Shown one piece after another: positions 1-557 of a stretch of DNA of 557 nt (its first letter is position 1; each line of letters begins with the position of its first letter). Where the stretch lies: assembly GCF_003334815.1 (NCBI RefSeq), contig NZ_QOWO01000128.1. One strand, written 5' to 3'. The translations under genes were made by a program, and so were the position numbers. Below the pieces are notes generated by a model. The model had not been told where the DNA came from. It ran no database searches and worked only from the letters and a program-made list of their open reading frames with translations. This DNA comes from Escherichia coli (GTDB lineage Bacteria; Pseudomonadota; Gammaproteobacteria; Enterobacterales; Enterobacteriaceae).

Positions 1-57
1 GTCCTTCATCGCCTCTGACTGCCAGGGCATCCACCGTGTACGCTTAGTCGCTTAACC
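1..57 (-). rRNA. rrl: 23S ribosomal RNA, 5' end only (gene continues beyond the left edge of the window)
   Basis: The reverse complement of 1..57 reads GGTTAAGCGACTAAGCGTACACGGTGGATGCCCTGGCAGTCAGAGGCGATGAAGGAC, which matches the canonical 5' end of enterobacterial 23S rRNA as I recall it. The mature 5' end (GGTTAAG) falls at position 57. Boundary is from memory of the mature end, not from mapping. Confidence 0.93.
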
Positions 58-231
58 TCACAACCCGAAGATGTTTCACTTCAGAGTTGCGAAAATTTGA
101 GAGACTCACGAACAACTTTCGTTGTTCAGTGTTTCAATTTTCAGCTTGATCCAGATTTTTAAAGAGCAAAACTTCGCAGTGAACCTTTGCAGGTACACTC
201 TGAAGTATTTTTTATTTAATCACTACAGAGA
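58..231 (-). other. Transcribed spacer between tRNA-Ala and 23S rRNA (distal part of the 16S-23S ITS)
   Basis: Lies between the tRNA-Ala 3' end (232) and the 23S 5' end (57). AT-rich, with no ORF carrying a plausible start and ribosome-binding site on either strand. Contains the boxA-like motif and a tetraloop hairpin listed separately. Confidence 0.9.
156..168 (-). promoter_or_regulatory. boxA-like rRNA antitermination element in the spacer
   Basis: The reverse complement of 156..168 is TGCTCTTTAAAAA, which closely resembles the rrn boxA consensus (GCTCTTTAACAA), the NusB/NusE-binding element of the rRNA antitermination system. A spacer copy of boxA between the tRNA genes and 23S is a known feature of E. 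coli rrn operons. Exact extent is approximate. Confidence 0.6.
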
Positions 232-307
232 TGGTGGAGCTATGCGGGATCGAACCGCAGACCTCCTGCGTGCAAAGCAGGCGCTCTCCCAGCTGAGCTA
301 TAGCCCC
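232..307 (-). tRNA. alaT: tRNA-Ala, anticodon UGC, 76 nt, CCA encoded
   Basis: The reverse complement of 232..307 is GGGGCTATAGCTCAGCTGGGAGAGCGCCTGCTTTGCACGCAGGAGGTCTGCGGTTCGATCCCGCATAGCTCCACCA. It has the G3:U70 identity pair of tRNA-Ala, a D-loop (AGCTGGGAGAGC), anticodon TGC (plus-strand GCA at 272..274), a T-arm (GGTTCGATCC) and a 3' CCA. This matches the E. coli spacer tRNA-Ala(UGC). The paralogue (alaT, alaU or alaV) cannot be told apart from this window; the symbol is the family representative. Confidence 0.97.
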
Positions 308-349
308 ATAACATGTAGTTAAAACCTCTTCAAATTTGCCGTGCAAATT
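308..349 (-). other. Short spacer between tRNA-Ile and tRNA-Ala
   Basis: 42 nt between the two tRNA genes. Contains an 8-bp inverted repeat (332..339 pairing with 343..350) that abuts the tRNA-Ile 3' end. Confidence 0.9.
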
Positions 350-426
<77 letters not shown>

Positions 427-494
427 GTAGAGGTTTTACTGCTCATTTTCATCAGACAATCTGTGTGAGCACTGCAAAGTACGCTTCTTTAAGG
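427..494 (-). other. Transcribed spacer between 16S rRNA and tRNA-Ile (proximal part of the ITS)
   Basis: The reverse complement begins CCTTAAAGAAGCGTACTTTGCAGTGCTCACACAGATTGTCTGATGAAAATGAGCAG, directly after the 16S 3' terminus. This matches the enterobacterial ITS sequence that forms one half of the 16S RNase III processing stem. Confidence 0.9.
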
Positions 495-557
495 TAAGGA
501 GGTGATCCAACCGCAGGTTCCCCTACGGTTACCTTGTTACGACTTCACCCCAGTCAT
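495..557 (-). rRNA. rrs: 16S ribosomal RNA, 3' end only (gene continues beyond the right edge of the window)
   Basis: The reverse complement of 495..557 is ATGACTGGGGTGAAGTCGTAACAAGGTAACCGTAGGGGAACCTGCGGTTGGATCACCTCCTTA. This is the universally conserved 16S 3' domain: the binding site of the 1492R universal primer, helix 45, and the anti-Shine-Dalgarno CCTCC (plus-strand GGAGG at 498..502). The mature 3' end is at position 495. Confidence 0.96.

Follow-up and report, generated by a model that had tools for sequence, protein, structure and literature searches.

Several Escherichia coli transfer RNAs (tRNAs) are transcribed with an intrinsic terminator whose hairpin directly abuts the CCA end, including those from proK, proL, proM, leuX, pheU, leuU, secG-leuU and the metT operon, and these stem-loops need to be removed before the tRNA is mature. 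Such terminators block RNase P, and their removal falls to RNase E, PNPase or RNase P (PMC2241853, PMC2811032, PMC5291269); RNase P is held back on an upstream tRNA until RNase E has taken away the 3′ terminator hairpin (PMC2241853). RNase E usually cuts 1-3 nucleotides (nt) past the CCA, within single-stranded A/U-rich RNA, and PNPase and RNase II can degrade hairpins that have no more than four G-C pairs (PMC5291269). RNase E also binds stem-loops and tRNAs via a distal groove, and neighbouring structured elements help (PMC9841416). For a cut placed exactly at the CCA, RNase E needs a C at the 5′ end of the tRNA (with G72 and a 3′ end of ...GACCA) (PMC5291269; PMC8860583). Here, we examine a hairpin at the CCA end of tRNA-Ile in the 16S-23S spacer of Escherichia coli, as present in a 557-nt stretch of DNA (NCBI RefSeq assembly GCF_003334815.1, contig NZ_QOWO01000128.1; hereafter the window).

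The closest named analogue of this hairpin, matched by position and fold, is found in cyanobacteria. The V2 helix of the cyanobacterial internal transcribed spacer (ITS) is a variable hairpin between tRNA-Ile and tRNA-Ala in the ribosomal RNA (rRNA) operon, rrn, and PMC8997340 names it after the scheme of Iteman et al. 2000. In E. coli, ileT, ileU and ileV are carried by rrnA, rrnD and rrnH (PMC9514646). ARAGORN and Rfam together show that the whole window is a 16S-23S spacer of the Ile/Ala type in antisense orientation, whose RNA is read from the minus strand. All coordinates given below are window positions.

A hairpin that takes in the CCA end of tRNA-Ile

An earlier note on this window, made from the sequence alone, had described an 8-bp hairpin abutting the 3′ end of tRNA-Ile. 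The sequences aaatttgc (332-339) and gcaaattt (343-350) are indeed exact reverse complements around cgt (340-342), and the transcript does read AAAUUUGC-ACG-GCAAAUUU. However, the true stem is one pair longer, since 331-339 and 343-351 are 100% complementary over 9 bp. The note had also let the stem reach the terminal A of the CCA, which is right (the CCA occupies 352, 351 and 350, and 350 is A76), but it had missed that C75 belongs to the stem as well. The ninth pair, formed by C75 (351) and G331, thus places two of the three CCA nucleotides inside the helix.

The 21-nt hairpin has a folding energy of -6.9 kcal/mol (z = -4.4), which was equalled in 0 of 200 shuffles. Its stability is moderate because just three of the nine pairs are G-C and the other six are A-U. 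When dinucleotide shuffles of the window were searched for a perfect stem with a loop of 3-8 nt at any position, stems of at least 9 bp appeared in 1.1% and stems of at least 8 bp in 4.7%. This chance rate within the window alone is suggestive and not decisive, and it is the comparative data that settle whether the hairpin is real. In five of five sampled E. coli genomes whose best copy is 99.5% identical, the sole difference from the window is at position 340, which is the third loop nucleotide (ACG becomes ACC in the RNA).

Each arm of the E. coli hairpin contains the self-complementary octamer CAAATTTG (331-338 and 344-351), and therefore the sense and antisense strands of this species fold equally well. 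These arms make the hairpin both a direct and an inverted repeat, and slipped or intermolecular pairing is possible.

The CCA hairpin recurs with unrelated sequences

We scanned 100,044 species-representative genomes with a search anchored in the tRNA-Ile 3′ end and the tRNA-Ala 5′ end, allowing a gap of 6-66 nt, and obtained 100 stretches containing 97 spacers, 79 of which are unique. A spacer was counted if, reading from the CCA into the spacer, its first helix of 6 bp or more starts within the CCA. A looser criterion, that C75 be paired in the minimum free energy (MFE) fold, was dropped as too permissive, given that shuffled sequences pair C75 39% of the time. A CCA-anchored helix is present in 49 of the 79 unique spacers, starting at C74 (26), C75 (21) or A76 (2), compared to an expectation of 14.5 +/- 3.5 and a maximum of 24 from 200 rounds of dinucleotide shuffling per spacer. 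Among the remaining spacers, the helix starts later in 12 and there is no such helix in 18. The anchored form is distributed over Vibrionales (23/27), Pasteurellales (13/18) and Enterobacterales (13/25), and several further Pasteurellales spacers carry 5-bp versions of it. Thus, conservation of the stem in orthologous spacers, which the earlier note had proposed as a check, is borne out in these three orders by a fixed position relative to the CCA.

The sequences that form the stem are unrelated between lineages. The stem CAAAUUUGC/GCAAAUUUG is shared by Escherichia, Citrobacter and Enterobacter, while Franconibacter and Yersinia have CAACUC/GAGUUG and Pasteurellaceae have CACUCA/UGAGUG. Vibrio carries CCAAUCUUC/GGAGAUUGG, Photobacterium CCACUUUCUCU/AGAGAAGGUGG and Salinivibrio CCAACACAU/AUGUGUUGG, and there are 25 distinct hexamers among the hairpin 5′ arms. 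In an alignment-free test, the CCA-anchored 5′ arm pairs over at least six contiguous bases with its own spacer in 41 of 70 cases, but in only 12.2 +/- 3.0 (maximum 24 in 2,000 permutations) when spacers are swapped between species. The two arms therefore covary, as the note had likewise suggested examining. Within the close relatives of E. coli, the stem is kept and the loop varies at every position (ACG, ACC, GAU, GAA or CCU), and Enterobacter asburiae shows one compensatory change from U-A to C-G together with one U.G pair.

Two further properties indicate that the structure acts as RNA rather than as DNA. The hairpins are more stable on the sense strand than on the antisense strand (-8.79 versus -7.76 kcal/mol; Wilcoxon p = 0.003), and G.U pairs account for 23 of the 440 pairs. 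The CCA-engaging helix is specific to spacer tRNAs; non-spacer tRNAs of the same loci have one in about 3 of 28 cases, near the shuffle expectation. We conclude with high confidence that the hairpin is a real secondary structure of the pre-rRNA and that it has been kept by selection.

In Vibrio, Photobacterium and Salinivibrio, the hairpin loop nearly always carries CCCA (in forms such as ccc-A, ccca, cuccca and ccccaa, seen for example in four loci), a motif that is conserved atop variable stems. Two contigs from metagenome-assembled genomes, labelled Bacillota and Desulfovibrio, contain an Ile-Ala spacer identical to that of E. coli, which suggests contamination or mis-binning, and a Pasteurellaceae-type spacer occurs in a record titled Pseudomonas stutzeri NCTC11607.

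A leader-trailer helix completes a three-way junction

A second conserved helix, new here and absent from the earlier note, forms between the 5′ leader of tRNA-Ile and the part of the trailer that follows the hairpin. In E. coli, trailer nucleotides 320-329 are the exact complement of leader nucleotides 429-438, giving 10 bp, and these lie in a 13-nt inverted repeat (320-332/426-438) that is 92% complementary. The trailer arm begins just one nucleotide (A330) past the hairpin. In the MFE fold of 305-445 (minus strand), the leader-trailer helix, the acceptor stem and the CCA hairpin meet in a three-way junction whose linkers are 1-2 nt long (AC, A73-C74 and A330).

This helix also recurs across taxa. 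The leader from -14 to -1 forms at least 7 contiguous bp with the spacer in 50 of 78 unique sequences, compared to 16.7 +/- 3.3 (maximum 25) with shuffled leaders and 14.8 +/- 3.2 (maximum 27) with swapped spacers; an earlier run with the distal leader as control gave 13 of 52. The test of contiguous helices in the proximal leader replaced RNAduplex z-scores for a 40-nt leader against the spacer, which were uninformative (median z of -0.1) because some duplex turns up in any 40x40 comparison. The arms are placed consistently, with the leader arm ending 1-4 nt from tRNA position +1 in 41 of 45 sequences and the trailer arm starting 1-9 nt past the hairpin in 29 of 31. Both elements are present in 31 of 73 sequences, the hairpin alone in 13 and the leader-trailer helix alone in 14. 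Again, the helix differs in sequence by lineage, for example CGAUACU/AGUAUCG in Vibrio, AAAAGACU/AGUCUUUU in Photobacterium, UCCUUUUG/CAAAAGGA in Pasteurellaceae and UACCUUGUUG/CAAUAAGGUG in Yersinia.

Applied to tRNA-Ala, the same test yields 23 of 75 against an expectation of 21.5 +/- 3.7, which is no signal, and this negative result indicates that the test is not trivially positive. A candidate leader-trailer helix at E. coli tRNA-Ala (ACUACA/UGUAGU) was rejected because such pairing is not above chance across taxa.

Similar structures at other tRNAs and in another lineage

A metagenome scan for other T-arm types of tRNA-Ile returned 27 stretches. In one abundant metagenomic lineage whose tRNA-Ile has a different T-arm, both the hairpin and the leader-trailer helix recur. 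There, the hairpin starts at C74 (CCAC-CUUACC...GGUAA-GUGG), and the leader UGAGCCUA pairs with the trailer UGGGCUUG. Seven metagenome contigs carry this two-part architecture, and their flanking proteins include PntB, PrfC and a histidine kinase.

Hairpins that engage the CCA are also found at spacer tRNAs other than tRNA-Ile. In Vibrionaceae, the tRNA-Ala trailer forms a long (16-23 bp) hairpin from C74, CCAUCUUUAAG...CUUAAAAAUGG, within the first ~40-55 nt past the CCA (as in five of the loci), and thus both spacer tRNAs of this family have a sequestered CCA. Over all taxa, a CCA hairpin is present at 34 of 80 tRNA-Ala trailers, compared to 14.4 +/- 3.5 expected. The E. coli spacer of the tRNA-Glu type (L133, 335-354) has a trailer hairpin from C75 (CACUUGC-UGGUUU-GUGAGUG; 7 bp including two G.U pairs), which is not significant alone (z = -1.1), and no leader-trailer helix is present at this locus. 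At Pasteurellaceae tRNA-Ala (five loci), a flanking leader-trailer helix of 8-11 bp, AGUUAUGAUG/CAUCAUAACU, starts 2-3 nt past the CCA; it is specific to that lineage and is not seen in E. coli.

Layout of the spacer

The features of the window are collected in Table 1. Its 195-nt Ile-Ala segment matches E. coli at 100% identity and occurs in 5,426 of 5,426 complete E. coli genomes. Position 308 provides a U at -1 of tRNA-Ala, a residue found there in 78 of the 79 unique spacers. Bacterial RNase P prefers U(-1), and the tRNA-Ala residue is consistent with this preference. A cut by RNase P at the 5′ end of tRNA-Ala would set the 3′ end of the tRNA-Ile trailer.

Table 1. Features of the 557-nt window, in order of window position
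Feature	Position	Strand	Basis and remarks
23S rRNA 5′ end	1-57	(-)	Rfam
StyR-44	65-164	(-)	Rfam, 106.9 bits; spacer directly upstream of 23S, overlaps spacer boxA
Spacer boxA UGCUCUUUAAAAA	156-168	(-)	Downstream of tRNA-Ala
boxB-like hairpin ACUUCAGAGUG...CACUGCGAAGU	~171-206	(-)	Precedes spacer boxA; kept in Enterobacteriaceae
tRNA-Ala(UGC)	232-307	(-)	ARAGORN; Rfam; downstream neighbour of tRNA-Ile
tRNA-Ala 5′ leader ACUACAUGUUAU, 12 nt	308-319	(-)	Sole long single-stranded stretch of the Ile-Ala spacer in the MFE fold
Trailer arm of leader-trailer helix AGAGGUUUUA, trailer +21 to +30	320-329	(-)	Inverted repeat; MFE fold
Hairpin 3′ arm GCAAAUUUG, trailer +11 to +19	331-339	(-)	Inverted repeat; MFE hairpin
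Hairpin loop, ACG in RNA	340-342	(-)	MFE hairpin
Hairpin 5′ arm CAAAUUUGC, C75, A76 and trailer +1 to +7	343-351	(-)	9-nt inverted repeat, 100% complementary; MFE hairpin
tRNA-Ile(GAU)	350-426	(-)	ARAGORN; Rfam tRNA 353-426, 66.3 bits; A1 = 426, discriminator A73 = 353, C74 = 352, C75 = 351, A76 = 350
Leader arm of leader-trailer helix UAAAACCUCU, tRNA-Ile -12 to -3	429-438	(-)	Inverted repeat; MFE fold
16S rRNA 3′ end	495-557	(-)	Rfam

A possible role in tRNA-Ile maturation

Judged against the established enzymology of tRNA processing, the hairpin and the leader-trailer helix are, on balance, probably a cis-acting closing module that has a processing or folding role in the maturation of tRNA-Ile. 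The earlier note had suggested an influence of the hairpin on 3′ maturation by RNase E and exonucleases, or on the separation of tRNA-Ile from tRNA-Ala, and this suggestion is partly supported. In the module, the first 19 nt of the trailer fold back, which pairs C75, A76 and the next 7 nt, and the two helices together close the pre-tRNA into a compact three-way junction. Burial of the CCA and of the first trailer nucleotides could restrict access of RNase E, RNase P and exonucleases. Bacterial RNase P RNA reportedly pairs with the CCA, a finding ascribed to Kirsebom and Svard in 1994. The 5′ leader near the RNase P site is held paired (-12 to -3). The 12-nt leader of tRNA-Ala is left as the only long single-stranded part, which may direct the first cuts to the tRNA-Ala side. 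The feet of the hairpin and helix might then stall 3′-to-5′ exonucleases that enter after RNase P has cut at tRNA-Ala. By these means, folding of tRNA-Ile would be insulated, and the place and order of its release by endonucleases would be imposed. RNase P action and CCA exposure would be delayed until the helix and hairpin open, with the hairpin opened or degraded last. The E. coli hairpin, which has three G-C pairs, may be weak enough for PNPase or RNase II to open or degrade it.

A stronger version of this proposal is that release of tRNA-Ile is strictly gated, which we offer only tentatively. It is conceivable, although we would not wager on it, that the hairpin and leader-trailer helix represent a conserved and so far unnamed closing module that gates the release of the main isoleucine tRNA from nascent pre-rRNA. 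We similarly speculate that RNase P could cut the 5′ end, and the CCA become exposed, only after an endonucleolytic or helicase-assisted opening step. With the same reserve, the supply of this tRNA might be coupled to the order of rRNA processing, and the logic might extend to tRNA-Glu of E. coli and to tRNA-Ala of Vibrionaceae.

Several observations weigh against these proposals, or temper the comparative evidence beneath them. The CCA hairpin is found in 0 of 9 sequences from Oceanospirillales, Orbales, Ferrimonas and Piscirickettsiaceae, it is absent in short-spacer Xenorhabdus, and spacers of 7-20 nt of the Pseudomonas type and others have neither the hairpin nor the leader-trailer helix. 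These absences imply that the hairpin is dispensable in some lineages. The sequences compared are phylogenetically related, and the counts reported above do not equal independent events. In an alignment of five E. coli-type sequences, 100% of the cells pair, compared to at most 47% in slid registers, but this alignment alone is not significant (110 of 500 shuffles). A combined MAFFT and RNAalifold analysis of 25 Vibrionaceae (leader, tRNA and spacer) recovered the cloverleaf only and no hairpin, because these spacers diverge too far, in both length and sequence, to be aligned without structure; the anchored, alignment-free tests described above took its place. In the papers and supplementary data searched, which included those of Clarke 2014, Chao 2017 and Altuvia 2018, we found no mapped site for RNase E, RNase III or RNase P in this spacer, no processing intermediate or mutant phenotype, and no cleavage site for ileT, ileU or ileV, and searches by exact sequence and by gene pair likewise gave none; each functional step above is therefore inferred. 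Finally, in one study that inactivated RNase E or RNase P, reverse transcription quantitative PCR showed no drop in mature tRNA-Ile (PMC9514646), a result that speaks weakly against strong dependence.

Alternative explanations

One could instead regard the structure as a pure folding insulator that compacts the spacer and keeps it from mispairing with nascent tRNA or rRNA, with no influence on nucleases. Structure and position are conserved without any sequence motif that a nuclease could read, the hairpin is dispensable where spacers are short, and the junction is compact with linkers of 1-2 nt, all of which would suit an insulator. However, an insulator has no need of an exact start at C74 or C75, and yet, among the 61 spacers with any helix of 6 bp or more, the helix begins at one of these two nucleotides in 47. 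Moreover, a buried CCA and a leader held by the RNase P site would necessarily alter access to known determinants that nucleases use (PMC2241853, PMC5291269). We regard a purely insulating role as improbable, and it overlaps with the proposed closing module without excluding it. Considerably less likely is an excision stalk for RNase III, in which stacking of the 9-bp hairpin and the 10-bp leader-trailer helix would create a quasi-continuous duplex of ~19 bp that has the tRNA inserted in it. The rrn stalks of 16S and 23S are established RNase III substrates, the two helices are a single nucleotide (A330) apart in E. coli, and the trailer arm lies within 1-9 nt of the hairpin in nearly all taxa that have both (29/31). 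The hairpin alone (9 bp) is too short for this enzyme, and although the stacked helices reach 19 bp in E. coli, their combined length across taxa has a median of 16 bp (range 13-25), under the roughly two helical turns (about 20 bp) that are usual. One strand would also be interrupted by an 81-nt insertion, and several taxa have just one of the two helices. The curated rrn sites for RNase III, which lie 5′ and 3′ of 16S and 3′ of alaT, gltT, 23S and 5S, include none adjoining ileT among those quoted in PMC6212723.

Another account concerns the fate of the spacer after excision, when the Ile-Ala fragment could serve as a trans-acting RNA that the hairpin stabilises, in the manner of the small RNA sponges derived from the 3′ external transcribed spacer of leuZ and the metZ-metW ITS. 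Such spacer-derived tRNA fragments do exist in E. coli (Lalaouna et al. 2015, cited in PMC5222698), and a 5′ hairpin could protect one. However, once the species nearest to E. coli are left behind, the fold is conserved and the sequence is not, which is the opposite of what is expected for a base-pairing regulator; in addition, the hairpin contains CCA nucleotides destined for the tRNA, and there is no match to an Rfam family. A sponge is thus very unlikely in our view. We give the least credence of all to a palindrome that arose by chance or that works at the DNA level, for instance as a cruciform or a binding site for a protein formed by the two CAAATTTG octamers. This idea draws on the palindromic arms of the E. 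coli hairpin, whose two strands fold equally, and on the shuffled windows, 1.1% of which produce a stem of at least 9 bp. Nevertheless, CAAATTTG is absent in other genera while a hairpin persists at the same RNA position. The G.U pairs, the greater stability of the sense strand, the anchoring at C74 or C75 of a transcribed tRNA and the comparison of own with swapped spacers also argue for RNA and against accident.

Implications

Excision of tRNA-Ile matters for both translation capacity and ribosome biogenesis because the gene sits inside an rrn operon, and far less of the processing pathway has been mapped for spacer tRNAs than for stand-alone tRNA operons. A shape that is conserved over several gammaproteobacterial orders, with burial of the CCA and pairing of leader with trailer, provides a hypothesis, open to testing by mutation, on the order in which RNase E, RNase P and exonucleases act. 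It might also suggest a functional reading for the V2 helix of cyanobacteria, a structure in wide taxonomic use. If the structure proves to be only a folding insulator, then the result would be a modest annotation of a well-known locus.

Comparison with known elements

The hairpin does not correspond to the regulatory elements that might be expected at this position. An intrinsic terminator was rejected, as a terminator scan gave 0 sites on either strand and the stem, with three G-C pairs in nine, is followed by GAAGAGG and no U-tract. A promoter was likewise rejected, there being no promoter-like site in a scan of the window. A boxB-boxA element, in which a hairpin lies directly upstream of boxA (UGCUCUUUAA...), was rejected because the hairpin at tRNA-Ile is ~165 nt upstream of the spacer boxA. 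Rfam searches over 331-351 with E values up to 1 returned tRNA models only, the nearest other match being a sub-threshold one at 352-383 (plus strand) with 30.5 bits against a gathering threshold of 59. We found no description of CCA sequestration or of a leader-trailer junction for bacterial spacer tRNAs in the literature searched; sequencing papers from 1979-1981, which lie outside that search, may contain such drawings.

Among described structures, the terminators that abut the CCA resemble the hairpin at tRNA-Ile in standing directly at the 3′ end of a tRNA. They differ in that the tRNA-Ile hairpin has no U-tract, is internal to the transcript and includes C75 and A76 in its stem. With regard to the one-step maturation of proline tRNAs by RNase E, the shared feature is a stem-loop directly at the CCA, which here starts at C75. 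In contrast, tRNA-Ile has A1-U72 and a 3′ end of ...CCUACCA, whereas the C1-G72 pair of the proline tRNAs directs RNase E exactly to the CCA.

The leader-trailer helix has its own parallels. Eukaryotes and archaea have pre-tRNAs in which leader and trailer pair with each other, which extends the acceptor stem and modulates access of RNase P; work by Ziehler et al. in 2000 on yeast nuclear RNase P is said to provide an example. The predicted structure described here differs in having an extra hairpin at the junction and a genomically encoded CCA, and in its setting within a bacterial pre-rRNA. Closer to hand are the processing stalks of 16S and 23S rRNA, in which the flanks also pair to enclose the mature RNA and the structure is conserved while the sequence varies. 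Nevertheless, the helices at tRNA-Ile are far shorter (7-10 bp plus a hairpin of 6-13 bp), the enclosed RNA is a tRNA, and PMC6212723 lists no known RNase III site at them.

The V2 helix shares with the hairpin both its place between the two spacer tRNAs and the way in which it is compared among taxa, by structure rather than by sequence, and it has no assigned function in the accessible part of PMC8997340. In that same text, V2 is a taxonomic marker of 7-90 nt and its relation to the CCA or to leader-trailer pairing is not described; cyanobacterial tRNA-Ile is listed at 74 nt, compared to the 77-nt, CCA-bearing tRNA-Ile of E. coli. Considering all of these comparisons, the hairpin at the CCA end of tRNA-Ile most plausibly belongs with the known structured tRNA trailers and rrn processing helices.

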